In this document: positions 9,095-22,062 of the stretch, piece by piece
Layout of the letters: every line of letters starts with the position of its first letter
Position numbering within the stretch: the first letter of the stretch is position 1
Virus record (IMG/VR): IMGVR_UViG_3300045988_010188
Reading direction: 5' to 3' (one strand)
Source of the DNA: a virus
DNA length: 43,735 nt
Notes under the pieces: generated by a model
Seen by the model: only the letters and a program-made list of their open reading frames with translations
What the model was told of the DNA's origin: nothing
Database searches by the model: none
Translations under genes and position numbers: made by a program

Positions 9095-9775
9095 ATGGGT
9101 AAGCAGACTGCGATAAACGCCGACTGTATGGAGTATATGCGGACGCTGCCGGACAAGGCATTTGACCTCGCCATTGTAGATCCGCCGTACTTCTCCGGCC
9201 CGGAACGCAGAGGGTATTACGGCAACAAGGTCAGTCCCATCGGCGTACACCGGGACTATCTAATTTCACCGAAGTGGGACATTCCGGGAACAGACTACTT
9301 TTCGCAGCTTGTGCGCGTGGCGAAAAAGTATATTGTATGGGGGTGTAATTACTTTGGTGTTGTTTTTCCGCCGGGGCGCATCGTTTGGGACAAGTGCAAC
9401 GGTAACAGTTCTTTTTCGGACTGCGAGATCGCGGCGACAAACTGCCACGATAGCGTTCGTATCTTTCGTTATATGTGGAACGGAATGTTTCAGGGGAAAA
9501 GCATCACGGACGGCACAACTCAGCAAGGAAACAAGGCACTAAACGAGGTACGCATCCATCCAACGCAGAAGCCGGTGGCGCTGTATGAATGGCTGCTGCA
9601 GAAGTACGCGAAAGAAGGTTGGCGCATTTTGGACACGCACCTCGGCAGCGGCTCAAGCCGTATTGCGGCCTACAACCTCGGCTTTGAGTTTGTGGGGTGC
9701 GAGATCGAACCGACATATTTCCAACTGCAAGAACAGCGGTTTGCGGAACATACGGCGCAGGAAAGGTTGTGGTGA
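9095..9775 (+). CDS. DNA amino-methyltransferase (N6A or N4C, beta-class motif order).
   Basis: DPPY motif near the N-terminus, HPTQKP, and an AdoMet motif ILDTHLGSGSS near the C-terminus. Confidence 0.88.
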   Translation: MGKQTAINADCMEYMRTLPDKAFDLAIVDPPYFSGPERRGYYGNKVSPIGVHRDYLISPKWDIPGTDYFSQLVRVAKKYIVWGCNYFGVVFPPGRIVWDKCNGNSSFSDCEIAATNCHDSVRIFRYMWNGMFQGKSITDGTTQQGNKALNEVRIHPTQKPVALYEWLLQKYAKEGWRILDTHLGSGSSRIAAYNLGFEFVGCEIEPTYFQLQEQRFAEHTAQERLW

Positions 9776-9778
9776 CGC

Positions 9779-10054
9779 ATGGGCAAGCAGCGTTTGAGCA
9801 GGGACGACCGCATCTTTATGCGGGGCAAGCTACAGGGCACACGGGAGAACATGGACATGGTGGCAATGGTACTGATGGATAAATGCGGCTGGCACGTCCA
9901 AGAGGAGACAGCGGACAGCCGGGACACGCAGAGCATCGCGTATCTGTACGAGTGCCTGGAGAAGCTGGCGGAGGAAATAAACGAGGGCCGCATCAAGCGG
10001 AAGCACATCAAGGACGTGCTGAAGGACGAGTGCGGCGTTGTGTTTGGAGATTGA
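9779..10054 (+). CDS. Hypothetical protein.
   Basis: Packed ORF between the two methyltransferase genes. Confidence 0.5.
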   Translation: MGKQRLSRDDRIFMRGKLQGTRENMDMVAMVLMDKCGWHVQEETADSRDTQSIAYLYECLEKLAEEINEGRIKRKHIKDVLKDECGVVFGD

Positions 10055-10058
10055 TGGA

Positions 10059-11498
10059 ATGAAAATACTGATCGGCGGAAGCCCCTGCACACATTGGAGT
10101 ATCGCACAGACCAAGAACCGCGAAACCGAGGCCAGCGGCGTCGGCTGGGAGTTGTTTCTGAATTATCGCATCGCACGGGACAAGTACCAGCCGGACTATT
10201 TTCTCTACGAGAACAACAAGAGTATGTCGCCCGCCATCCGGGCGCAGATCACGGCGGAGCTGGGCGTGGAACCCGTGCTTATCAACTCCGCGCTGGTATC
10301 GGCGCAGAACAGACAGCGCTTGTATTGGGTGGGCAGACGGAACCCGGACGGCACATACAACCAAGTGCCGGTGGAGCAGCCGGTGAACCGTGGGACCCTC
10401 CTGCGCGACATTCTGGAAAGTGGTGTCTGCTGGAAAGAAAAAGGGTATGCCCTGCTGTCCACAACTGGCGGAACCACGGCGGACGACATGGTTTCCAGAC
10501 ACCAGCGGAATGGTGCGGCGGAACCTGTTGCCATTAAGCCGCTGACCGAAAAAGAAATGGATTATATGGTGCGCGAAACCAAGGACGGGCGGAATCATTT
10601 TGATTTCGATTATTTCCACGACGCAATGAAGGGAAAAAGCGCCTGCGTGACGGCGAACACCCACAAGGGCGTCCCGTATAACGTTCTGGTGGAGCCGGTG
10701 AGGATCGGACCATTGAGAACGACGCAAAGAACCAGACTTTTGACAGCCAGCAATACAGGGGTTACAGCCCGGACGCCAAAAAGCGTAACCCTCTGCGGGA
10801 ATGGCGGCGGCCTGGGTGCAAAAACCGGGCTTTATGCCGTGCCTGTGGCTGGGCGCGTCGTGGGACGCAGGATCAACGAGCAAGGCCACCGCGACGATTA
10901 CAACGAAGCGATCCCACATTTCCAGTATTTCGAGGTAAACGAAGAACCGCAGAAAACCAACTGCCTGACAACCGTTCAGAAAGACAATATGATTGCCGTC
11001 CCCGTTATCCCGGACGGGAAAGGGCAGTTTGTAATTAAGGCGGCAGGCGGAAAAGAAATCCCAGTTTACGAGGTTCGCGGCGGGCGGATCACCATCAAAG
11101 AAAAGACATACCCCATTAAACTGGCAGACGGATTTTACATCATTCGCAAACTGACCGTAACGGAATGTAAACGCCTCCAGACCGTGCCGGACACATACGC
11201 CTTTCCCGTCAGCGACACCCAGGCGTATAAAATGCTGGGCAACGGCTGGACCGTGGATGTGATTGCCCACATTATGAGCCATTTTACCGGGCTGACGGAG
11301 GAGCCGGTGGAAGTGCTTTCTATGTACGACGGTATGAGCTGCGGGCATATTGCATTGGAAAAGATGGGTGTGAATGTTACAACATACTATGCAACCGAGA
11401 TCGACAAATACGCCGTACAGACCACACAGCACAATTACCCGGACACCATGCAACTGGGCGACGCTTTCCAAGTACGAAAGGAGGATTGGGTGCTATGA
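10059..11498 (+). CDS. DNA (cytosine-5) methyltransferase with circularly permuted motif order (IV-X, then I-III).
   Basis: GGSPCTHWS (IV), YENN (VI), QNRQRLYW (VIII), LTVTECKRLQTVPDTY (IX), GNGWTVDVI (X), then C-terminal VLSMYDGMSCGHIALEKMG (I), YATEIDKYA (II), QLGDA (III). GGAGA RBS before ATG 10059. Confidence 0.85.
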   Translation: MKILIGGSPCTHWSIAQTKNRETEASGVGWELFLNYRIARDKYQPDYFLYENNKSMSPAIRAQITAELGVEPVLINSALVSAQNRQRLYWVGRRNPDGTYNQVPVEQPVNRGTLLRDILESGVCWKEKGYALLSTTGGTTADDMVSRHQRNGAAEPVAIKPLTEKEMDYMVRETKDGRNHFDFDYFHDAMKGKSACVTANTHKGVPYNVLVEPVRIGPLRTTQRTRLLTASNTGVTARTPKSVTLCGNGGGLGAKTGLYAVPVAGRVVGRRINEQGHRDDYNEAIPHFQYFEVNEEPQKTNCLTTVQKDNMIAVPVIPDGKGQFVIKAAGGKEIPVYEVRGGRITIKEKTYPIKLADGFYIIRKLTVTECKRLQTVPDTYAFPVSDTQAYKMLGNGWTVDVIAHIMSHFTGLTEEPVEVLSMYDGMSCGHIALEKMGVNVTTYYATEIDKYAVQTTQHNYPDTMQLGDAFQVRKEDWVL

Positions 11499-12319: not shown

Positions 12320-12492
12320 TGGGAGAGCATAAGCACAACCCCACTGCCGTCGCTGCGAAGAACGGCGAACTGCCGCCGAAAAAGAAGCCGATGGGCACGG
12401 CGGAGAGTAGGGCGTGGATGTACACATGGATACGAGAGCACACGCCGCTGGGCATCATGGAACGTGAGATAAGGAGGAACTACAATGGCTAA
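12319..12492 (+). CDS. 57-aa hypothetical protein (below the track cutoff).
   Basis: ATG overlaps the upstream TGA. Translation MGEHKHNPTAVAAKNGELPPKKKPMGTAESRAWMYTWIREHTPLGIMEREIRRNYNG. Its stop overlaps the next gene. Confidence 0.45.
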   Translation: MGEHKHNPTAVAAKNGELPPKKKPMGTAESRAWMYTWIREHTPLGIMEREIRRNYNG

Positions 12493-12769
12493 ATGGAGAG
12501 TATATGAGGCAGATGTTCCGCAGTGTACTGGCTGTGGAATGTGGATGCCGTTCGCCAGATACCGGCGTGGTCAAGGGACGAATGCGAGAGAAATCACAAA
12601 CTATTGCCCATATTGTGGTAGGAAGATAACGGCGATGCCGATGTGTAGCGACTGCAAATATGGTCATGGAGAGTGGAAGGAGGACGGAATATGTTACGCC
12701 TGCCGTGAGCAGGTATGGGTTCCGGGAGCGCCACACAGAAAAGCTGGAGAGGAGAACGACAATGGCTGA
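12485..12769 (+). CDS. Zinc-ribbon protein.
   Basis: CTGCG...CPYCG...CSDC...CYAC. Confidence 0.6.
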   Translation: MAKWRVYEADVPQCTGCGMWMPFARYRRGQGTNAREITNYCPYCGRKITAMPMCSDCKYGHGEWKEDGICYACREQVWVPGAPHRKAGEENDNG

Positions 12770-13025
12770 ATACATTGAGCGGGAAGCGCTGATAGCCAAA
12801 TTTGAGCGGATGGAGTTGGGTGAAAACAGCTTTATCGAAAGAGTATTTGCAGACGGGGTATATGCCATTATTGAACAATTCCCCGCCGCTGATGTTGCCC
12901 CGGTGGTGCGCTGCAAGGACTGCAAGTATAACATGGGGAGCAAAAAGTGTTTGAACCCTGACAGCTTTTTTGCGGTGCCGAAGGACGACGACTTCTGCTC
13001 CTACGGTAAGAGAAAGGAGGAATAG
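12762..13025 (+). CDS. Hypothetical Cys-containing protein.
   Basis: MAEYIEREALIAKF...CKDCKY. GGAGAGGAG RBS upstream. Confidence 0.55.
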   Translation: MAEYIEREALIAKFERMELGENSFIERVFADGVYAIIEQFPAADVAPVVRCKDCKYNMGSKKCLNPDSFFAVPKDDDFCSYGKRKEE

Positions 13026-13038
13026 CGTCATAAAACAA

Positions 13039-13623
13039 ATGAAACCAACCACAAATGACCGCATTATCGCCGCAGCGTGGGTGCTGCTGATACTGGCGGC
13101 GGCGCTGGTGGTGCTGACCGGCTTTTCTGAGAAGGTGCCGGAACGCGAGGAGCGCACGATTCTGGTGATCGAGGGCGGCCCACACGAAGAAGCATACGAA
13201 GACCCGGACGAAGCGGAGAAAAGCGCGGAGGCGGTGATTGCAGCCATCGGAACAGACCGAGAGTTTGAGACCTTCGGCTACGACGTGACGAAGGTGCTTC
13301 AGATCGTTACGGCAGAAGCGGGAAACGACGCCGACCAATGCCGTGGCATTGTACAAGCCCTGTTTAATGCATGCAATCGCCACAGGAACCGCTGCACGCC
13401 GGAGGAAGTATGCAGGGAGTATCAGTATACCACCCCGGCAAGCTGGGTGTCTGACGCGGCGCGAAACGCCTTTTGCGAGGTGTTTGTGTACGGTGAGACA
13501 TTTACCGACATCGGCAATGCGACGGTGTTTTATAATCCCCAGATCGCCGGACACAGCGAATACCATGAGGGGCAGATTTACGTTTGCAGCATCGGAGATG
13601 TGAAGTATTTCGAGGAAGTGTGA
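13039..13623 (+). CDS. Membrane-anchored SleB-like cell-wall hydrolase domain protein.
   Basis: N-terminal TM segment AAAWVLLILAAALVVL. The C-terminus TAEAGNDADQCRGIVQALFNACNRH... resembles the Hydrolase_2 pattern, from memory. Confidence 0.55.
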   Translation: MKPTTNDRIIAAAWVLLILAAALVVLTGFSEKVPEREERTILVIEGGPHEEAYEDPDEAEKSAEAVIAAIGTDREFETFGYDVTKVLQIVTAEAGNDADQCRGIVQALFNACNRHRNRCTPEEVCREYQYTTPASWVSDAARNAFCEVFVYGETFTDIGNATVFYNPQIAGHSEYHEGQIYVCSIGDVKYFEEV

Positions 13624-13683
13624 AAAGTGTTTAATTAGAATAACTACTTTAGAGGATCAGCGTTTTTGCACTATAAACATTGC

Positions 13684-13702
13684 AAAAAGTATGGTACAAT
13701 AG
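13684..13702 (+). promoter_or_regulatory. Extended -10 promoter, copy 1 of a shared 19-nt block.
   Basis: AAAAAGTATGGTACAATAG with TGgTACAAT at 13692-13700. It differs at one position from 22114-22132. Confidence 0.6.
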
Positions 13703-13809
13703 TCGTGGGGACGTGCAGACCCTATGACACCTCCTATTCATCATCTTGCTTGCATTCATTTTTCATTCTCCTTTCTGTGGCCCGTCGTTGCACGGCGGCG
13801 GGCACACAC

Positions 13810-13893
13810 GGCATTGTAGCTCAGTTGGAAGAGCGCACGGCGGAAACCGCCGCCGATGGACGATGCAGGGTTCGATTCCCGCCAATGCCTCCA
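13810..13893 (+). tRNA. tRNA-like element with a non-canonical anticodon arm (possibly degenerate).
   Basis: 7-bp acceptor stem GGCATTG/CAATGCC, D-arm GCTC-AGTTGGAA-GAGC, T-loop GGTTCGATTCC and an encoded CCA. However, the anticodon region is CGGCGG-AAA-CCGCCG, there are 13 extra nt, and the T-stem has a bulged A. Confidence 0.45.
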
Positions 13894-14600
13894 TTCAACC
13901 GCTTTCCCGCCAGCGGTATATGACGGGTATACGCCGGACTGCGTGAGCTATCCCACGATCAGGGGCGGGAGGTCGCACCTCCCATCCGGTCACAGTGTGC
14001 CGACACATAGAAAACGGCTGGGCAATACGGAGCCTGTAGAGACGGAATCCGCGACGAAAAAAGCGGTGCGGCACTACCGTGGGCAAGTGGCATAGCGTCC
14101 CGCCCGAAAGTGTGCCAGAACATTGAAGCGGTAGGCGCTCCGCCATACGTTTACCGAGGAGTTCCGAAGGGTTGTGCGTATTCCTCAAAGCGGATAGGCA
14201 AAAGCCGAAAGAAAACGCACTATATGCGGCATAGGTGCCTCGCAAGGGGAGACCACAGCGAGTGACGGGGACTTTCCCCGAAGCGCTAAAGTAGGGTAGG
14301 ACTGCAATGCCGTACCAGATGCCGGGTAGCGCCCGGACAATGTGAGACCGTTGTCGTCATGGCTCACATGGAAATGACAAAGCTCGCTGAAAACTGCGCT
14401 TGTCTTGATGCGTCAAGACCGGTTTGACCTGACGGAATAGGGGCTACGACTTTTCGGAGCGTAGTTGCCGGTAGCGTGTGACAATCTAAGTGAGAAAGAC
14501 GGCCAATGGAAAGAAAAATGCCCAATGTGGGCGGCGTTGTAGCCCTTCGGGGCGGGTAAAGTCTGCTATATTTCCGGAGATTGGTGCGTGTAGATAGCGA
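13894..14600 (+). ncRNA. Candidate large structured ncRNA or late leader.
   Basis: No credible CDS in the region. It holds at least 10 GC-rich hairpins, several with GNRA or UUCG loops (coordinates in the findings), plus long-range complementarity. A promoter lies upstream. Confidence 0.45.
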
Positions 14601-14621
14601 GATGCAAGAGGGAGATGGAGA

Positions 14622-15203
14622 ATGAACGATAAAGTCACAGACATGGAGGTAACGCCCAAGCGCGGACGTGGAAGACCCAAAGGCTCAGGAGGAAACAAGC
14701 GCCCCGACTGCGCCGTGCAGACAAATCCCGGTGATAACACAAAGTACCTGAACCACGCGCTTATCATGTTCAAGTGGGACGATCCCGATATGGAGAGCGT
14801 AGAACAAGTATCTACCAGAATTGCAGACTACTTTGATTTGTGTGCAGAGAACGACATGAAGCCCAGTGTAGCAGGCTTAGCGCTTGCTTTTGGTGTTTCA
14901 CGGGAGACTTTGACGCGGTGGGCAAACGGGACAGGAGAGAACAGAAGCCGAATCTTGCCCGCCGGAGTGCGCCACACGCTTAAAAAAGCGTACCAAATTT
15001 TGAACGCGCAGATGGAGGATTATATGCAAAACGGCAAGATTAACCCAGTTGCGGGTATTTTTTTGATGAAAAACAACATGGGCTATCAGGACAAGCAGGA
15101 AGTGGTCTTGACCCCCAACCAGCCTTTGGGCGAGCAACTATCGCCGGAGGACTTGCAACAGAAATATCTTACCGACATCGCTGCGGAGATCGACGAAAAC
15201 TGA
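14622..15203 (+). CDS. terS: Terminase small subunit.
   Basis: N-terminal basic GRGRPKGSGG and an HTH-like LALAFGVSRETLTRWANG. FLMKNNMGYQDKQEV is typical of the terS family. Confidence 0.75.
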   Translation: MNDKVTDMEVTPKRGRGRPKGSGGNKRPDCAVQTNPGDNTKYLNHALIMFKWDDPDMESVEQVSTRIADYFDLCAENDMKPSVAGLALAFGVSRETLTRWANGTGENRSRILPAGVRHTLKKAYQILNAQMEDYMQNGKINPVAGIFLMKNNMGYQDKQEVVLTPNQPLGEQLSPEDLQQKYLTDIAAEIDEN

Positions 15204-15304
15204 ACGGAATCCCGCACACTTCGAAAAATGGGTGAGAAAAACACGGGGTTGATACACGGAATCTCGTACAGACGACCATTTTGGAGTATTTTGGAGGTGC
15301 GAAC

Positions 15305-15897
15305 ATGGAGGAATGGGTGGACATTCCGGGTTATGAGGGGCTGTATCAGATCACCAGAGACGGGAAAATCAGGAACGTAACGAATGGGAATAAACTGCTC
15401 GGCAATGTGAACTCGCACGGGTATGTGGTCGTATCCCTTACGAAGAACGGAAGGAAGAAGGACTGCAAAGTGCATCGACTTTTAGCCTTAACGTTTTGCC
15501 AAATCCGAACGACTATGACTGCATCAACCACAAGAACGGCAACAAACTTGACAACCGCTTGCAAAACTTGGAGTGGTGCACGAAGGGATACAATAACCGG
15601 CACGCGAGGGAAGTTCTTGGCGTGAACGCTGAGGAAAGGCCCGTTTGCCAGTTTACTTTGTCCGGCGACTTTGTGGCACTTTGGGTGAATGAGGCGCAGG
15701 CCGCAAGATGTCTTGGCATCTCCCCCGTCTGCATTGCAAGCTGTTGCGAGGGTCGGGCGAACACCGCCGCCGGATTCCGCTGGGACTATGCGGGAACCGA
15801 CTATAAGCAATTTTGCGAAGACATGAAGCGGCGCGCGACTTTGAAAAAGATTGAGCGCTTGGAGCGGCAAATTTCCGAATTGCGCCAACAACTATGA
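15305..15897 (+). pseudogene. NUMOD4/HNH_3 homing endonuclease, interrupted by a frameshift.
   Basis: MEEWVDIPGYEGLYQITRDGKIRNV...KVHRLLALTF in one frame continues as LPNPNDYDCINHKNGNKLDNRLQNLEW in the -1 frame. The switch occurs at the T4 run at 15494-15497. Confidence 0.65.
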
Positions 15898-15919
15898 AAC
15901 AACTATGTCGCGACTATAA

Positions 15920-15966
15920 CAGGCTCTCCCCGGCGCAGAATCCGGCGGGAGCCTGATGCGTTTTTC
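15920..15966 (+). terminator. Intrinsic terminator after the endonuclease gene.
   Basis: CAGGCTCTCCCCGG...CCGGCGGGAGCCTG hairpin at 15920-15955, followed by TTTTT at 15961-15965. Confidence 0.65.
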
Positions 15967-16180
15967 GTGAAAAATCTGGTGAAAATCTTCTCAAAACCGG
16001 CGAGAAAGAACGAACGTTCGATTTCTGACGGTGCAACGAGGGTAAAACGGGGCACAAAATAACACCCCACAGAACGGTAAATAAAGGCCGCTGCAAGACG
16101 TTTGCAGGCGTGGCAATATAGGGGATAGCGGGCGGGAACAAATGCCGCCAGAGCGGCTTAAAATGGCCTGTATCGGGGCA

Positions 16181-16203
16181 AAAGAAAAGCGCCCTTTTGG
16201 GCG
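16181..16203 (-). terminator. Terminator-like hairpin on the minus strand.
   Basis: The minus strand reads CGCCC-AAAA-GGGCG followed by CTTTTCTTT. It contains the left 14-mer of the island inverted repeat. Confidence 0.4.
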
Positions 16204-16254
16204 TGGTCTGGCAGGCGCTGCGCCGATGATCCGGCGGAGCTGCACCAGGGCAAG

Positions 16255-16279
16255 AGGAAAGCCGCCCGGCGTGGGCGGC
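16255..16279 (-). terminator. Terminator of the minus-strand island operon.
   Basis: GCCGCCC-ACGCC-GGGCGGC hairpin on the minus strand followed by TTTCCTCTT, 11 nt after the stop at 16290. Confidence 0.5.
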
Positions 16280-16289
16280 TCCTGCGGTG

Positions 16290-16493
16290 TTAATATGTCG
16301 GGTTTGGCTTGCTTAGCTCCCACTCTCCAAATTTTGCAGCGTGGGCGGCCTCGTAAGCCGTGAAAAATTCCTGTTCCGTGCATGGGGCAAACTCCATATG
16401 CACGGCCTCGCGGGTCTCGTCGTCCATTAACTCGACGGTGGCGGAAAAGTCGATCTCTGCGCCGCTGCGGTTGGTTACCATAATGCGCTCCAT
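16290..16493 (-). CDS. Small hypothetical protein of a type seen on Firmicutes mobile elements.
   Basis: MERIMVTNRSGAEIDFSATVELMDDETREAVH...CTEQEFFTAYEAAHAAKFGE. The pattern is remembered from ICE/plasmid accessory regions. Confidence 0.6.
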   Translation of the reverse strand: MERIMVTNRSGAEIDFSATVELMDDETREAVHMEFAPCTEQEFFTAYEAAHAAKFGEWELSKPNPTY

Positions 16494-16559
16494 GTTGCGC
16501 TCCTTTCTGGGCCTGCGCCCTGTCCGCTAGATTGATTGTAACATGTTGACGGTTGCCTG

Positions 16560-16628
16560 TCAATTAGACCGCTTGACGATCTCAACAAGAACCATCAGCG
16601 GGAAAGCGAGGATCAAAAGCAGGGTCAT
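16560..16628 (-). CDS. 22-aa hydrophobic peptide.
   Basis: ATGA overlap with the upstream stop. Translation MTLLLILAFPLMVLVEIVKRSN. Confidence 0.3.
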   Translation of the reverse strand: MTLLLILAFPLMVLVEIVKRSN

Positions 16629-16855
16629 GCGCTCACCTCCTCGGCGGGGCGGTGACGCTCCGGAAAATCGCCGATCAAGAAAACGATCCGGCGGGCTTTG
16701 AGGTCGTAGACGATAACGCCACGGTCGGTGCCGTATCCGCTGGCGGAGAAGTAACACCGGGCTTTTGCGTCGCGTATCGCGTCAGCCTTGCGGGAGTACT
16801 CGCGGCGCTCGTCCGCGCCGGTGTCCTCGTTGTATGTGATGATCTGGTAACGCAT
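16625..16855 (-). CDS. Hypothetical protein.
   Basis: TAAGGAGG RBS at 16862-16869 on the minus strand. 76 aa. Confidence 0.55.
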   Translation of the reverse strand: MRYQIITYNEDTGADERREYSRKADAIRDAKARCYFSASGYGTDRGVIVYDLKARRIVFLIGDFPERHRPAEEVSA

Positions 16856-16867
16856 TGTAGCGCCTCC

Positions 16868-17041
16868 TTATAATCCGGCGGCGGATTTCTCCGTCATGTA
16901 TTGCGTGTGCAGCTCTGCCAGTTCTGCCAGCTCTGCGGGTGTGTAGTCCCAGAAATACGGGTTACTGCTGCGGGCCTCTGCGGCCTCGTGGATGTGCTGC
17001 ATCTGGTCGGCAAGGCGGCGCATGTGCGGCGTTAGAAACAT
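16868..17041 (-). CDS. 57-aa hypothetical protein (below the track cutoff).
   Basis: AAGGAGGGG RBS, then ATG 17041. Translation MFLTPHMRRLADQMQHIHEAAEARSSNPYFWDYTPAELAELAELHTQYMTEKSAAGL. Confidence 0.5.
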   Translation of the reverse strand: MFLTPHMRRLADQMQHIHEAAEARSSNPYFWDYTPAELAELAELHTQYMTEKSAAGL

Positions 17042-17053
17042 GTGATCCCCTCC

Positions 17054-17321
17054 TTATGCAAACGTAAACCGGCGAGCGGTTGTTGTCTTGGTGTACTGGG
17101 CGGCGATCTCGGGCAGGTCTCGCTTTAATGCGGTGGTATCCACGCGGGAGCTTGTGACGGCCTTATAAGTGGCCTTGTGTTCGTCGCCTGCCAGGGTATC
17201 AACCCCGGCGGCCTGCATCTGGGTTTTGAGCTGGTTTTTTGAGAGATTCCACCATTGCGGCGGCTTCTTCCTGCATCCGGATATATTGGGCCAGTTCGGA
17301 CATGATCTGGTTAATGTTCAT
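17054..17321 (-). pseudogene. Conserved-looking small gene with a homopolymer frameshift.
   Basis: MNINQIMSELAQYIRMQEEAAAMVESLK stops soon after an A6 run (plus-strand T6 at 17235-17240). With one A fewer the frame stays open for 60 more codons (NQLKTQMQAAGVDTL...TARRFTFA) and ends just before the next RBS. Confidence 0.6.
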
Positions 17322-17953
17322 GCTTCCACCTCCTCAAGAATCACGGTTACATTATCGCGGCTGCCAAAGCTGCGGATATCGTAGGCCAGATATTTATATG
17401 TCCCGGCGTAAAGCCTGAGAAAGAGTGTTCCGAACCGGGATTCTATTTCCATGCGGTTTCTTTTCGCATAGGTTAAAATCAGGGCGGCGGGCGTAAAGTT
17501 CGCGCCATGCTCGACGGTCTCGCGGAAAGAACAAACCCATTTAATACCGTCGTAGTGTTCCGCGCTGATCTCGTTTGCAATGGCGAGAATTTCGGCAGTG
17601 GTGTAACTGGGGTTCTGTTTGTGTATGCGCTGTTCCAAGTTGAGATTGCGCCAAGATTGACCGCTTTTGTCGGTGTATTGCGTGTCGATGTGTAGTCCAA
17701 TGGGGTTGACGATCTCTTGCACGGGGTGTTTCAGCGGTGCCCCGGTGCGCTTGTTGGTATAGCGCGGCTGGCTGCGGTTCTGCCAAAGAGAAAATTCAAG
17801 AAAATAATTCCGGCCGTCCTTGCCGGGGATCGCCTCGCCCATCGTGCATACGCGATAATTACCGACGTCGCTTTCAGCGGTGACCGGAACGCCGCCAGTG
17901 AAATTACAGGCGCGCTTTTCAAGTAACAAATAGTTCTTTCCGTTAATGATCAT
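17318..17953 (-). CDS. 211-aa hypothetical protein, first gene of the minus-strand island operon.
   Basis: AGGAGG RBS, with an ATGA overlap to the next gene. No motif recognised. Confidence 0.65.
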   Translation of the reverse strand: MIINGKNYLLLEKRACNFTGGVPVTAESDVGNYRVCTMGEAIPGKDGRNYFLEFSLWQNRSQPRYTNKRTGAPLKHPVQEIVNPIGLHIDTQYTDKSGQSWRNLNLEQRIHKQNPSYTTAEILAIANEISAEHYDGIKWVCSFRETVEHGANFTPAALILTYAKRNRMEIESRFGTLFLRLYAGTYKYLAYDIRSFGSRDNVTVILEEVEA

Positions 17954-18075
17954 TGTAATTTCCTCCTTGATTTTTTACGGTGGAGGCGGTACAATAATTG
18001 CGCCGCTCTCCTTGGCGGTGCGCTCCGATGCTGTCCAGGCTGGCGGGGCGCTTTTCTTTTTGGTTTACATCTGCT

Positions 18076-18104
18076 ATTATACGCGCATTACATTTACTTG
18101 TCAA
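18076..18104 (-). promoter_or_regulatory. Consensus sigma-70-type promoter for the minus-strand island operon.
   Basis: On the minus strand: TTGACA (18104-18099), a 17-nt spacer, then TATAAT (18081-18076). Confidence 0.7.
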
Positions 18105-18306
18105 GCGTAAACGCATAATTTACCCATGATTTTTTGTAAATGTGGCCATATGGGGCGGCCTAGGCTGTACCGGCAGATGGTGACGGGGGCGGGGGATATG
18201 CGGCAGCGGCAGGCCCGGGGGTTAGTCCCGTAAATCCCCCAAAAAATAAAAAGGCTACCTCCGAAAACCGCGCCAAAAATCAAAAAGACAAATTTGCAAA
18301 AACCTG

Positions 18307-18344
18307 TTGACATTTGCATTTACATGATGTACAATAAATGCAAA
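18307..18344 (+). promoter_or_regulatory. Promoter of the recombinase gene with an overlapping palindromic operator.
   Basis: TTGACA (18307-18312), a 17-nt spacer, then TACAAT (18330-18335). TTTGCATTTA at 18313-18322 and TAAATGCAAA at 18335-18344 form a perfect 10-nt inverted repeat. Confidence 0.7.
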
Positions 18345-18361
18345 CAGGAGAGTGATGTAAC

Positions 18362-19126
18362 ATGTTTGAATACAAAAATGCCATCGGCTATATCAGGGTG
18401 TCCACAGAGCAGCAGGCGGCAGATGACCGGTACGGAGTACAGTCTCAGAAGCAGGCCATTTTGCTGTATGCGAATCAGAACGGATACAACATCGTAGACT
18501 GGAAGATCGACGAAATGAGCGGGGCAAAGGATGATCGTCCCGCACTGAATGAGATCCTTTACGGCGAGAACGTGACGAATCCCCCGTATGAGGCGGTGAT
18601 CGTGTTCAAGAATGACCGACTGGCCAGAGACACGAAACTGTACTTCTACTACCTGTATGTGCTGGATAAGAAGAACATCAAGCTTCTGAGCGTAGAGGAG
18701 CAGTTCAACGAGGGCAGCGAGTTTGCCAACATCTACCGGTCTTTGCTGCAATTTGTGGCGGAGCAGGAGCGGAAGAACATCGCCCTGCGTACTGGACGCG
18801 GCAGAAGCATGAAAGCGTCCTGCGGCGGCTACAGCGGCGGACGGCGGCCTTACGGCTACAAGGTGGTGGATGGTGTGCTGACCATTGACCCGGACGAGGC
18901 GGAGATTGTGAAGTTTATTTTCCAGAAGCACAAGGAGGGCGTGTCCATGCTGGGCACGACGGAGCTTCTGGAACAGGCCGGGTACAAGACGAGGAAAGGA
19001 TCAAGGTTTCAGACATCCACCGTCAAAAGTATTTTGAGCAACAAGCCCTTGTATGAGGGCATGTACAAATACGGCGATATGAACTGGGTGCGCGGCGTTC
19101 ATGAGCCGATTTTGAAGGGGGAATGA
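18362..19126 (+). CDS. Short serine recombinase (resolvase domain plus part of the recombinase domain; no zinc-ribbon or coiled-coil domain).
   Basis: AIGYIRVSTEQQ holds the catalytic Ser region. Also VIVFKNDRLARD and RRPYGYKVVDGVLTIDPDEAEIVKFIF. Only 254 aa. Confidence 0.85.
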   Translation: MFEYKNAIGYIRVSTEQQAADDRYGVQSQKQAILLYANQNGYNIVDWKIDEMSGAKDDRPALNEILYGENVTNPPYEAVIVFKNDRLARDTKLYFYYLYVLDKKNIKLLSVEEQFNEGSEFANIYRSLLQFVAEQERKNIALRTGRGRSMKASCGGYSGGRRPYGYKVVDGVLTIDPDEAEIVKFIFQKHKEGVSMLGTTELLEQAGYKTRKGSRFQTSTVKSILSNKPLYEGMYKYGDMNWVRGVHEPILKGE

Positions 19127-20320
19127 TTGATGATCTCATCCATCTGCGCCAAACTTGTGATGCTGTGCATGGCAGGGCTGATGGGCGGCTTTGTGTGGCT
19201 GCTGGTGTGCATTTTTACAAAGCGAAAGAAAAAGCCGTGCTTCGTGGTGTGCGCTGCGTGCGTCGGCGGGTTCGTGGTGTTTACACTGATTGGTTCGCTG
19301 TCAAGCCCGACCACTACACACAAGCCAAGTTCCGAGGTTGGTAAAACGCAGAGTGAAACGCACCAAGATAGCGAGAAGGAAATGAACACGGGAGACGCCA
19401 ACACAGAAAACATTTCTGATAATTCTGACCTTGTTGTGGAGGGAGAGATGATCAAGTCTTTTTATCGCATTCTGGAAGAGATCGGCATTGACGCCAAAGA
19501 CGCGAAGAAAATCGAAAAGGTGGAGGATTGGGCATCCGGCCCACGGTACAGTTTTCCCACAAACGGGACTACGGCGCGGGTTTATTGCAGCGCAGACGGA
19601 ACGGTGCAGTCGATAAAGGTCGGAATGGATATCGACCTATACAAGAACGGATACGAGCCGTGGAAGATCGAAAACTTCATTGTAGATGATGGAATCAAGG
19701 ATACGCTGATCTTCAAAACAAAGGACGCTGTTTCGATATACCTGAATTATCCAAGCTCTGCCGATTTTCCGCTTATGGACTGGTCTTTTGGGCGGCAGTT
19801 TGACCGATACACGGTAAGAAGCCATGTAGACGCGCCAAATGCGTTTGGTGTATACAGCGAGGTTTCCTTTACCGCCGGTTACCACGTTGAAGACAACACG
19901 GCGGAGTTAATTTATCTGGAGGTGGGCGGAAACGTCGTGCAGAACAACGCAGATAAATACCCGCTTCCTGAAAGAAAAGAAGTTGAGACGGAAGCCGGTG
20001 ACACTACATCTGTCGGCACAGAAATCCGGATCGTTGACGGCGTTGTTGGCGAGTACGGGAAAAAGATGCAGCTGGATAGCTACGAATATATCTGGTACAT
20101 GGTTCCAGCTGGGAAATACAAGGCAACAGGAAACGCGAAGAACAGCATTATTTACATCGACAAAAACAGCGTCAACAAAAACGCGGAAGGGTACGCAGAG
20201 GTACGGAATGTTTCCACCTACATACTGTCCTACGGGGAAAGCGCTGTGATAGAAGTTGGAACGGACGAACACATCTTCAACACATACGGCGCAGATTTTA
20301 CGCTGGTGCCGATGGAATAA
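19127..20320 (+). CDS. Membrane-anchored protein with two N-terminal TM segments and a large extracytoplasmic domain.
   Basis: Hydrophobic N-terminus followed by a Ser/Thr/Glu-rich linker. The DNA is visibly more A/T-rich than the flanking sequence. Start is TTG 19127 or ATG 19130. Confidence 0.7.
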   Translation: MMISSICAKLVMLCMAGLMGGFVWLLVCIFTKRKKKPCFVVCAACVGGFVVFTLIGSLSSPTTTHKPSSEVGKTQSETHQDSEKEMNTGDANTENISDNSDLVVEGEMIKSFYRILEEIGIDAKDAKKIEKVEDWASGPRYSFPTNGTTARVYCSADGTVQSIKVGMDIDLYKNGYEPWKIENFIVDDGIKDTLIFKTKDAVSIYLNYPSSADFPLMDWSFGRQFDRYTVRSHVDAPNAFGVYSEVSFTAGYHVEDNTAELIYLEVGGNVVQNNADKYPLPERKEVETEAGDTTSVGTEIRIVDGVVGEYGKKMQLDSYEYIWYMVPAGKYKATGNAKNSIIYIDKNSVNKNAEGYAEVRNVSTYILSYGESAVIEVGTDEHIFNTYGADFTLVPME

Positions 20321-20355
20321 CATAACAAAATAAGGCTCCCGCGAGGGCAGGAGCA

Positions 20356-20405
20356 ACAGCCAAAGGGGCTATCTGCATGGAAAACATGCGGGTAGCTCCT
20401 TTTTT
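20356..20405 (+). terminator. Intrinsic terminator, copy 1 of a repeated element.
   Basis: ACAGCCAAA, then GGGGCTATCTGCATG-gaaaa-CATGCGGGTAGCTCC, then T6. It overlaps the track start of the terL ORF. Confidence 0.7.
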
Positions 20406-20421
20406 GCATTTGGGGGTAAAA

Positions 20422-22062
20422 ATGGACTACGAAAGACTGGCGAAGTCGATCCGGACGAAAATTGAGAGAGTTCCGGGTGATATCGGGGCGTATAACGACC
20501 TCTTTTCCCTCTGTAGGAGCTGGGAGGACGAGGATCACGCCGCCGCACACGGCGAAAACAAGAAAATCTTGCAGGAGTGCCGGGAGAAGATCAGAACTTG
20601 TCCACAGGCGGCGGACAAGTTTTATGAGCAGTGGCGAAAGTGCCTTTTGTTCGAGGCTCCCTACGATTTTGACAGCTATCTGACGTATGTGGAGCTGAAC
20701 CGTGAAGCGAAAAAGCGGTTTTATCCTCCCCGGAAAAAGATGCTTGGGCGCGTGGTAAAGGATTTGCAGGCGCTGGCGGATGATAAGCTTGACCTTCTGG
20801 CTATCAGCTTGCCCCCCGGCGTGGGAAAGACCACATTAGCCATCTTCTATCTCACATGGCTGGGCGGAAAATATCCCAACGACCCTATGCTGACGGGCAG
20901 CCACTCCAATTCTTTCGTGCGGGGTGTATACGATGAATGTTTACGCATTTTCGACGCAAACGGGGAATATCTGTGGCGCGATGTGTTTCCGGGCATCAAC
21001 GTGAGCAACACCAATGCAAAGGACTGCCGCATTGATCTGGACAAGTGCCAGCGATTTGAAACGCTGGAATTTACGTCTATCGGAACGGGCAACGCCGGTC
21101 TGTACCGTGCGGCGACGCTGCTCTACTGCGACGACCTGGTCTCCGGTATCGAAGTGGCTTTGTCAAAAGAACGATTGGACAAGCTGTGGGAAACGTACAC
21201 CACCGACCTGCGGCAGAGAAAGATCGGCGACCGCTGCAAGGAGCTGCACATCGCCACCAGATGGTCGGTACATGACGTGATCGGACGGTTGGAGCGGGAA
21301 TACGAGAAGAACGACCGGGCGAAATTCATCGCCATCCCTGCAATGGACGAAAACGACGAATCCAACTTCGATTACGCCTACGGGGTGGGGTTTTCCACAA
21401 AGTTCTACAAGGAACAGCGGGATATTATGGATTCCGTCAGTTGGAGGGCGCTCTATATGAATCAGCCCATCGAAAGAGAGGGCCTACTTTACCATCCGGA
21501 TGAGCTGAGACGGTATTTTACGCTGCCGGACAAGGAGCCGGACGCAATTATCGGCATTTGCGACACGAAAGACAAAGGCACGGACTACGCCTTTCTCCCT
21601 GTGGCCCATGTATACGGGCAGGATTACTACATCGACGATTGCGTGTGCGACAACGGACTGCCCGATGTGGTGGATGTGCGGCTTGCCGACATTCTGGTGC
21701 GGGACAAGGTGAACGCCTGCCGGTTTGAATCCAACTCCGCAGGCGGCAGAGTGGCGGAAAAGGTACAAGGAATGGTGAAAGACCGGAACGGGATCACCCA
21801 CATTACCACGAAATTTACCACGGCGAATAAGGAGACGAAGATCATCGTCAATTCGGCGTATGTGAAGGAGCATTTTCTATTCAAGGACGAGACACTGTAT
21901 AAGCGAAATTCCGATTACGGCAGAATGATGGACATGCTCTGCTCTTACACGGTGGCGGGAAAGAACAAGCACGACGACGTTCCCGACGGCATGGCGATGC
22001 TGGCGGAGTTCTCGCAGGCGCTGAACGGCGCAAAAGTGGAGATTTTCAAGCGTCCCTACTGA
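20422..22062 (+). CDS. terL: Terminase large subunit.
   Basis: Walker A PPGVGKTT and a nuclease-region pattern. The start is moved to ATG 20422 (MDYERL) because the terminator occupies 20365-20405. Confidence 0.85.
   Translation: MDYERLAKSIRTKIERVPGDIGAYNDLFSLCRSWEDEDHAAAHGENKKILQECREKIRTCPQAADKFYEQWRKCLLFEAPYDFDSYLTYVELNREAKKRFYPPRKKMLGRVVKDLQALADDKLDLLAISLPPGVGKTTLAIFYLTWLGGKYPNDPMLTGSHSNSFVRGVYDECLRIFDANGEYLWRDVFPGINVSNTNAKDCRIDLDKCQRFETLEFTSIGTGNAGLYRAATLLYCDDLVSGIEVALSKERLDKLWETYTTDLRQRKIGDRCKELHIATRWSVHDVIGRLEREYEKNDRAKFIAIPAMDENDESNFDYAYGVGFSTKFYKEQRDIMDSVSWRALYMNQPIEREGLLYHPDELRRYFTLPDKEPDAIIGICDTKDKGTDYAFLPVAHVYGQDYYIDDCVCDNGLPDVVDVRLADILVRDKVNACRFESNSAGGRVAEKVQGMVKDRNGITHITTKFTTANKETKIIVNSAYVKEHFLFKDETLYKRNSDYGRMMDMLCSYTVAGKNKHDDVPDGMAMLAEFSQALNGAKVEIFKRPY

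Follow-up and report, generated by a model that had tools for sequence, protein, structure and literature searches.

The tRNA islands of phages are home to the largest unexplained bacterial RNAs, ROOL and GOLLD, whose structures have been solved but whose functions have not. Both are described as 'often near tRNA islands', and tRNAs can even sit in the linker of GOLLD (PMC12286853). Here we describe a locus that represents a different organisation of this same niche: a gene-free interval at positions 13624-14621 of the IMG/VR virus record IMGVR_UViG_3300045988_010188 ('the window' hereafter means this whole stretch of DNA, 43.7 kb long, to which coordinates refer unless another locus is named; L-numbered loci are the IMG/VR or genome contigs compared with it). 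Our analysis supports reading this interval, which occupies the leader of the terS (packaging) operon, as a modular array: its structured RNAs are small, conserved and independent of one another, and tRNAs or their look-alikes delimit them. In order, the array comprises a promoter, a leader, a tRNA-like element (TL1), the modules C1 and C2, the drum RNA, a cloverleaf (TL2), a pseudoknotted RNA that we term E2, two hairpins and a gene relic, after which terS, the gene for the terminase small subunit, begins. On balance, we think it probable that the carrier is a temperate-type phage of gut Clostridia, and that the array is made as one precursor punctuated by tRNA shapes.

Two further described RNAs bear on this locus. 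The drum motif of Weinberg et al. (2017) is an orphan with the hallmarks of a sophisticated function, thought to be a small RNA; it has predicted Rho-independent terminators at its 3′ end, and an association with a nearby protein gene is also described (PMC5737381). Theta ribozymes, for their part, adjoin the tRNAs of gut phages and have been proposed to process the 3′ trailer (PMC10879173).

A gene-free interval made of separable RNA modules

The interval lies between an open reading frame (ORF) at 12970-13623 (PHROG 18750, function unknown) and terS, on the plus strand at 14622-15203 (Pfam GP3_package, 8.2e-15; PHROG 606, 1.7e-13). Its own ORFs are 43-116 aa long, fall on both strands and overlap one another. 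As no PHROG family matched any of the six ORFs, and as insertions and deletions of 1, 2 and 18-27 nt run through them in close relatives, a protein-coding reading was rejected, in agreement with the initial annotation of this DNA, which had found no credible coding sequence here. That annotation had also called the region hairpin-dense, and the counts bear this out: 14 perfect stems (at least 5 bp, at least 3 GC, loop of 3-8 nt) against 4.0 ± 2.4 in dinucleotide shuffles, 14 being reached in 1 of 300; a density in the top 2.8% among same-size segments of the phage genome; and a minimum free energy (MFE) z-score of -5.3 for the whole region relative to shuffles. The promoter, the 84-nt tRNA-like element, the nine hairpins and the complementary strings CAGCGAG and CTCGCTG that it quoted all sit at the positions it gave, several of the hairpins being helices of three different modules.

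At the gathering score, the entire window matches two Rfam families only, tRNA (13810-13890) and drum (14118-14223). A permissive rescan of 13600-14700 with cmscan (4227 Rfam families, E ≤ 10) returned no ROOL, GOLLD, HEARO, OLE or raiA, its extra matches being noise (JUMPstart at 16.2 bits and an archaeal small nucleolar RNA). Within the GenBank phage collection, matches were partial and confined to two unannotated human-faecal 'Bacteriophage sp.' records.

Could the whole ~0.9 kb nevertheless be one large ornate RNA, of the ROOL/GOLLD class or of a new giant class, as had been suggested for it? The size and the setting beside tRNA-like elements in a phage genome would fit, as would the strong folding of the region as a whole. 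Like ROOL and GOLLD, this is a structure-rich non-coding region of unknown function in a phage or prophage, beside tRNA islands (PMC12286853), with terS, terL, a serine recombinase, TL1 and, in relatives, real tRNAs for company. However, ROOL and GOLLD each have one conserved fold of 580-800 nt, whereas the window holds separable modules of ~60-190 nt whose order varies, and the two share no sequence, size or architecture.

Among 67 IMG/VR loci recovered through terS, five, with terS 93-97% identical, share the region in heavily rearranged form. In L001 and L005, the promoter is preceded by an additional gene of 87 aa and terS by three small genes; in L002 and L003, drum is directly followed by a gene of 231 aa, with two others ahead of terS; and in L004 some 360 nt, including a canonical tRNA-Thr(CGU), are inserted between the equivalents of 14317 and 14304, i.e. 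between TL2 and E2. Around the terS genes of more distant relatives (41-66% identical), neither drum nor a tRNA nor E2 is present, so the array is not tied to this terS family. The order of the modules is itself permuted, being C2b (the 3′ hairpin of C2), drum, TL2, E2 in the window and tRNA, E2, TL2, C2b in most other phages, and a drum lies within 2.5 kb of E2 in only 14 of 132 copies, the remaining 118 standing without one. Such inserted genes and tRNAs, together with modules that are independent and permuted, are incompatible with one conserved tertiary fold; nor is any single collinear unit conserved among the homologues.

The sole long-range pair that had been proposed, 14256-62 with 14383-89, exists as complementarity in the sequence, but 14383-88 covaries with 14489-94 instead; the pair was rejected, since its TL2-side strand is invariant and TL2 lies mostly on the other side of E2 in phages. 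Covariation among the homologous phage loci supports a different set of helices, with compensatory changes in E2, TL2, C1 and C2b, and the search with Rfam covariance models advised for the region turned up drum and tRNA rather than ROOL or GOLLD. A single large ornate RNA is thus already largely refuted by the evidence, and we give it next to no credence, although the 'or new' alternative was right in spirit: part of the interval is a conserved structured RNA that is in no catalogued family.

E2, a pseudoknotted RNA often flush with the 3′ ends of tRNAs

That RNA is E2 (14318-14507, plus strand), 190 nt in length, with a core of ~115 nt once its variable domain is set aside. It is built from two hairpins, H1 (14322-26/14332-36) and H2 (14341-46/14363-68), a pseudoknot between the loop of H2 (14353-58) and the 3′ tail (14498-14503), a long helix, Plong (14383-88/14489-94), and a helix, Pvar (14397-99/14474-76), that closes the variable domain. 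Conserved unpaired strands (GGAAATGACAA, GAAAACTG and TGTGACAATCTA) complete the structure, and GGAAAUGACAAUG, GAAAACUG and UGUGACAAUCUA are highly conserved; conservation over 14374-14396 is inflated by the pattern used for retrieval. Neither E2 nor TL2 belongs to a catalogued family. For E2, Rfam 15 (4227 families) gave no match at E ≤ 10, and a literature search by topic and by sequence string, which left the 8,495 unnamed IMG/VR candidate RNAs of Fremin 2023 uncompared, found no paper describing it.

It is an abundant motif. A drum-core pattern scan of IMG/VR, in which L070 and L084 matched by chance within coding sequence, led to L079, a tRNA array that is 91% identical to the window over 13995-14219 and, in a second block, 79% identical over 14310-14399, where the hairpins show evident compensatory changes. 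A 19-base pattern from the E2 core then matched at least 120 IMG/VR contigs, and the matches listed fall into at least 82 distinct 270-nt contexts, whose identity to the window is 29-85%. An independent pattern for the 5′ hairpins added at least 40 more variants without the exact core, so the core is strongly conserved rather than invariant and the family is larger than our sample. Seven further copies are found in bacterial genome contigs, including Pseudoflavonifractor sp. Marseille-P3106 and metagenome-assembled genomes of Clostridia/Eubacteriales (6 of the 13 matches in that scan were due to chance, without the rest of E2), which points to hosts of Oscillospirales type. Gut-phage contigs and the Pseudoflavonifractor genome together hold E2 in more than 160 distinct contexts, and our own covariance model, R1, finds exactly one copy in the window (14310-14513, 209.8 bits).

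The covariation is strong. With 44 copies (<97% identical) aligned by MAFFT on sequence only, 93.6% of 968 cells hold standard pairs and 10 of 22 pairs are changed on both sides, and none of 500 shuffles reached any of the five measures; in controls with the partner strand slid by 1-3 columns, pairing fell to 32-42%. Aligned to R1, 51 copies including those from genomes give 94.7% pairing cells and 11 compensatory pairs out of 22; three of the helices went into fitting this second alignment, which makes the MAFFT one the cleaner test. The pseudoknot also stands in an alignment-free test, where the loop-tail helix of each copy averages 5.43 bp against 4.52 ± 0.13 when tails are swapped at random between copies (maximum 4.92 in 500 permutations). 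At least four complementary classes of this pseudoknot exist (GTCGTC/GACGGC, TCGGCTT/AAGCCGA, GAGCAG/CTGCTC and GCGC/GCGC), to which the genome copies add TGCGGTT/AACCGCA. The variable domain spans 10-82 nt, and its closing helix averages 4.1 bp versus 2.0 in shuffles, with sequences that differ between copies. Inside the variable domain of the window copy, GCCGGTAGCGTG (14466-14477) agrees at 11 of 12 positions with the ops/JUMPstart core GGCGGTAGCGTG, the below-threshold match noted above (E = 2.1); as it is absent from other types of variable domain, the resemblance was treated as chance.

E2 often begins where a tRNA ends. In 79 of 125 copies, a tRNA called by ARAGORN ends within 5 nt of the 5′ end of E2 (no more than 1 nt away in every example listed), and at least 12 tRNA identities are found in this position: Trp and Thr (18 each), Cys (13), Pro (12), Gln (6), and also Asp, Val, Ala, Ile, Asn, Glu and Arg. 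On the other side, 12 copies have the start of a tRNA no more than 10 nt from their 3′ end. The final A of CCA is invariant in 44 copies even with CC replaced (CAA, TTA, CGA), and the G that follows is at least 90% conserved. The copies of large phages, like that of the Pseudoflavonifractor genome, lie within arrays of 8-12 tRNAs. In 80 distinct E2 loci, the nearest ORF downstream (100 aa or longer) encodes a ParB-like nuclease/methyltransferase 18 times and is terS 10 times, which places these arrays at the entrance of the packaging module in several lineages with different terS genes.

Such a junction raises the possibility that E2 is a new class of self-cleaving ribozyme, cutting at its own 5′ end and thereby freeing, with no need of host nucleases, the 3′ end of the tRNA or tRNA-like element upstream. 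It is flush with tRNAs of a dozen or more species across a conserved A|G junction, and its many conserved unpaired nucleotides and its pseudoknot are typical of demanding chemistry. In one locus, L218, it directly follows RAGATH-21, a motif named for its association with ribozyme-linked genes. There is also the precedent of theta ribozymes: both they and E2 are structured RNAs beside tRNA genes in mammalian-gut Caudoviricetes, Bacillota phages included, a likeness that suggests a link to tRNA 3′-end formation (PMC10879173). On the other hand, theta ribozymes have the nested double pseudoknot of hepatitis delta virus (HDV), whereas E2 combines two hairpins, a loop-tail pseudoknot, a long helix with internal-loop strands and a variable domain in a topology that is not HDV-like; E2 is about three times larger, its core of ~115 nt exceeds most small self-cleavers, and no Rfam ribozyme matches it (E ≤ 10 for the window, E ≤ 1 for L218). 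The neighbouring tRNAs differ too, being ordinary isoacceptors rather than suppressors, and most of those upstream of E2 encode CCA, compared with 4.5% of theta-associated tRNAs (PMC10879173). Moreover, E2 is equally preserved behind the non-decoding TL2 (in the window and 17 other copies), and its 3′ end is precisely bounded by tRNAs or TL2, which suggests that E2 is itself the product and not a disposable trailer. We therefore consider self-cleavage unlikely.

A broader proposal would be that E2 is a new functional RNA class, born attached to tRNA 3′ ends in phages of gut Clostridia, which acts either as a processing ribozyme or as a self-assembling, protein-free architectural RNA in the ROOL/GOLLD tradition, with TL1 and TL2 as processing handles or as decoys for tRNA-targeting defence nucleases. 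We put this forward tentatively and with more doubt than conviction. If E2 does prove catalytic or self-assembling, the phages of the human gut would hold a new RNA class; and as a motif outside Rfam 15 whose fusion to tRNA 3′ ends is exact, it offers a biogenesis that is directly testable.

The copy in L218 deserves mention in its own right. There, RAGATH-21 (RF03097, 76.8 bits) occupies 2849-2925 on the minus strand, and a tRNA comes after E2. This tRNA-shaped orphan motif thus takes the slot that TL2 or a tRNA fills elsewhere; it is absent from the window, and TL2 fails the RAGATH-21 model. L218 would be the first context clue for the orphan RAGATH-21 that we have met.

Drum and the cloverleaf that follows it

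Drum itself is already known, and its embedding in the proposed precursor is a new context for it. The window copy (14118-14223, plus strand; RF02958) is full length, covering model positions 1-112 of 112 at 75.6 bits (cmscan, E = 3.7e-14; gathering score 43), and the relatives score 75-82 bits. It resembles its family in the conserved GGGUUGUGCG...CGAAAGAAAACGC core and the 5′ hairpin, and the GTGCGT/ACGCAC and GGC-aaaa-GCC stems listed in the initial annotation form its 3′ domain. It differs in its borders. The family has a 3′ terminator, and stand-alone copies such as those of L077 and L092 have their own promoter and terminator, whereas the window drum has neither: no terminator is predicted on the plus strand after 14223, and the RNA lies inside a longer unit, with C2 before it and TL2 only 2 nt after it. 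The orphan hence gains a concrete context, in which it would be ended by a cloverleaf rather than by a terminator. Among the neighbours of three stand-alone drums, no gene was consistent. One of these drums, in L083 (1762-3470), lies ~120 nt downstream of a 359-aa TnpB-like gene (IS605/IS1341-type), which is probably a coincidence; it is followed by a tRNA-like element, GGCGAAATAGGTAGACGC...GGTGCAAATCC, with an internal insertion of ~160 nt, and then by a tRNA-Ile(UAU).

TL2 (14226-14317, plus strand) is a 92-nt cloverleaf with a 7-bp acceptor-like stem (GCGGCAT/ATGCCGT), three arms and a 3′ ACCA that runs straight into E2; two of the hairpins annotated earlier, CCTC-GCAA-GGGG and GGGGA-ctt-TCCCC, lie within it. 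Its MFE structure is a four-way junction (z = -2.66), and RNAalifold, run on 33 distinct copies, finds 28 consensus pairs, with compensatory changes in 4, as in the T-like arm, where GCAG/CUGC becomes GAGG/CCUC. Across these 33 copies, which come from different phages, the element is almost invariant. No tool that we used recognises it as a tRNA. We found TL2 in 42 distinct contexts, 5′ or 3′ of E2: it lies 3′ of E2 in 42 copies and 5′ of E2 in 17, the window included. What follows it varies between phages, and may be E2, a strong terminator, a C2b-like hairpin or another recurrent module. One such non-coding module, ACCACACAAGCGGGCGAGGAAGCGCGAGAAGTTAAGTRCACACAAGCTGTGGCCACAG..., follows TL2 in L004 (3101-3460), L069, L073, L078, L119, L143 and others, and is not present in the window.

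A probable precursor punctuated by tRNA shapes

How might these RNAs be made? We posit that the array is transcribed as one precursor from the promoter at 13692-13700, and that the tRNA-shaped elements serve as punctuation within it. Each tRNA-like element would be cut by RNase P on its 5′ side and by the tRNA 3′-end machinery (RNase Z or exonucleases) on its 3′ side, such that drum (with C2) and E2 would be released as discrete, stable and probably trans-acting RNAs; TL2 would here replace the intrinsic terminator that ends stand-alone drum genes. We infer a polycistronic precursor because the modules abut tRNA shapes at 0-3 nt, all of them are co-oriented with terS behind a single conserved promoter, and no terminator is predicted on the plus strand between 13700 and 14621.

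Processing of precursors punctuated by tRNAs is familiar from mitochondria, from MALAT1-mascRNA and from the tRNA-miRNA transcripts of MHV68. In the array, as in these systems, tRNA shapes flank RNAs that are not tRNAs, and with a spacing of 0-3 nt, cuts by RNase P and RNase Z would define the ends of the neighbouring RNAs. These systems, however, are eukaryotic, organellar or herpesviral, whereas the array belongs to a bacteriophage, and TL1 and TL2 are not known to be RNase P substrates.

Several points weigh against this scheme. Co-transcription and processing are both read from the layout alone. No tRNA-like element follows E2 in the window, and the 3′ end of E2 must therefore be made in another way, or else E2 stays on the terS mRNA. 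Encoded CCA disfavours RNase Z in Firmicutes, and, as most tRNAs upstream of E2 do encode it, the 5′ end of E2 may not come from a simple cut. Taken singly, C1, C2, drum and the 3′ hairpins have unremarkable thermodynamic z-scores. Covariation is thin outside E2, with 4 compensated pairs in TL2 and 2 each in C1 and C2b, because there is little sequence variation to draw on. Finally, the E2 sample was ascertained by sequence patterns, so that conservation at the pattern positions is inflated.

TL1, C1 and C2 at the head of the array

The tRNA-like element ending in CCA that had been noted at 13810-13893 (plus strand) is genuine: TL1, 84 nt long, has an acceptor stem, a D arm, a T arm and the CCA, and matches RF00005 at 35.9 bits against a gathering score of 29. 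ARAGORN labels it 'tRNA-Phe(aaa)'. Its anticodon arm is non-canonical, with a stem of 6-8 bp, a loop of 3-6 nt and an extra segment of 13 nt, taking up 24 nt where the tRNA model expects a 17-nt arm; the MFE structure has an 8-bp bulged stem and a 6-nt loop here. U33 and purine 37 are missing, and the called anticodon AAA is flanked by G-G and C-C. TL1 thus has no canonical arm with a 5-bp stem, a 7-nt loop and a usable anticodon, and by these sequence features it is not a plausible decoder. In its slot, L001 and L005 have a canonical tRNA-Asn(GUU) of 67.2 bits with the same acceptor and T-arm ends. For the equivalents of TL1 in relatives, ARAGORN gives a 4-nt 'ggaa' anticodon or no call; those of L004 (2565-2648), L076 and L091 have a perfect anticodon stem of 5-6 bp and an 8-nt loop with the anticodon ggaa, which could be due to chance or could reflect a quadruplet-type loop.

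C1 (13934-13994, plus strand) consists of an outer stem, GCCGGA/TCCGGT, around the invariant hairpin GGGAGG-TCGCA-CCTCCC (13967-13983), and also heads other arrays, in which both strands of the outer stem differ and read GCCGTG/CACGGC. C2 (13995-14117, plus strand) is a spacer module 5′ of drum, with the hairpin C2b (14070-14116, GGCAC...GTGCC) at its 3′ end. It accompanies drum in L079 at 91% identity, and C2b is found elsewhere without drum, following TL2, with a compensated stem (GCCGC/GCGGC). The thermodynamic z-score of C2 on its own is +0.39.

Perhaps all of this is a tRNA island in decay, with TL1, TL2 and C1 as tRNA pseudogenes and the rest as functionless recombination debris? TL1 does sit in the slot of a real tRNA-Asn of the relatives, the window has lost genes here by deletion, and modules have been shuffled between phages. 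Debris, however, would show no structure-preserving selection, whereas the helices of E2, TL2, C1 and C2b have been kept by compensatory changes over many lineages, TL2 has stayed almost invariant, and drum is an established conserved family. We hold decay to be very improbable.

Promoter, leader and the entrance to the packaging operon

The initial annotation had given the region a promoter of its own, and conservation favours this. The extended -10 promoter-like site TGGTACAAT (13692-13700, plus strand), read from the sequence, is essentially invariant in the five relatives together with ~50 nt upstream, and in the unrelated phage L129 an analogous array opens with TGCTACAAT and a similar CU-rich leader in the same position. 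A -35-dependent sigma-70 scan did not call the site at 13692-13700, because no -35 lies at a usable spacing. The leader (13702-13808, plus strand) comprises a 5′ hairpin (13702-13728), a CU-rich tract and a GC-rich hairpin (13776-13808) that abuts TL1. Its fold has a z-score of -3.38, none of 200 shuffles folding as well, and both hairpins are kept in relatives.

At the other end, two short hairpins, GCCCA-atg-TGGGC and GCCC-TTCG-GGGC (14520-14553, plus strand), form a recurrent end-of-array element: GTTGTAGCCCYTCGGGGCGGGTAAAGTCTGCTAT also stands upstream of different terS genes in L118, L133 and L156, and the element has a 92% match to MT835513, with a thermodynamic z-score of only -0.49. Behind it, 14572-14621 (plus strand) is the relic 3′ end of a deleted small ORF (...VDSEMQEGDGE*), and carries the ribosome-binding site of terS. 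It preserves the last 11 codons of a gene that L001-L004 retain as ORFs of 77-110 aa, ending ...DREMQEGDGE* and overlapping the terS ATG, and blastn blocks resume at 14572; part of the ORF-free kilobase is therefore a deletion scar.

The position of the array invites the idea that the late/packaging operon has in it, or in E2 alone, a cis-acting leader, be it for antitermination (put- or EAR-like), for the translation or stability of terS, or as the pac site. In every case the packaging module comes right after the array, in the same orientation; the array of the window has a promoter of its own, with no terminator ahead of terS, the 14520-53 hairpin element recurs upstream of unrelated terS genes, and in some other arrays a strong terminator directly follows TL2, through which late transcription must read. 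Yet E2 also occurs inside arrays of 8-12 tRNAs, with tRNAs on both sides and no adjoining ORF. The order of modules varies, as does the distance to terS, by more than 1 kb, and relatives place genes between the modules and terS. In addition, terS relatives at 41-66% identity do without any array, and in P22-type gp3 systems the pac site is inside the terS gene. We regard a cis-acting leader as improbable for the array or E2; for the 3′ hairpins, a cis-regulatory role in the leader (antitermination, pac) is possible.

Neighbouring genes

Within the packaging module, terS (14622-15203) and terL (20377-22062) lie ~5 kb apart. The intervening 15204-20376 holds an HNH/NUMOD4 homing endonuclease, a minus-strand block of small genes at 16290-17953 (67, 76, 57, 54 and 211 aa), where the sign of the AT skew flips, and a large serine recombinase encoded at 18362-19126, with its continuation at 19127-20320; the stretch resembles a mobile insertion within that module. 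The endonuclease (15281-15897) falls in two overlapping frames, NUMOD4 at 15281-15625 and HNH_3 at 15496-15897, which match consecutive parts of PHROG 59, and this suggests a frameshift, whether in a pseudogene or programmed.

Just upstream of the array are one to three copies of a small Cys-rich protein family ending ...FCSYGERKE, for which the best family clue is a weak zinc-ribbon: 12485-13025 in the window, 901-1137 and 1736-1999 in L001, and 1507-1791 in L004. In L001 and L005, one copy lies between the upstream gene and the promoter. Further upstream in the window, 9095-11498 holds two DNA methyltransferase genes (PHROG 23224/67 and PHROG 116); in other phages, a ParB-like nuclease/methyltransferase is often found immediately downstream of E2 arrays.

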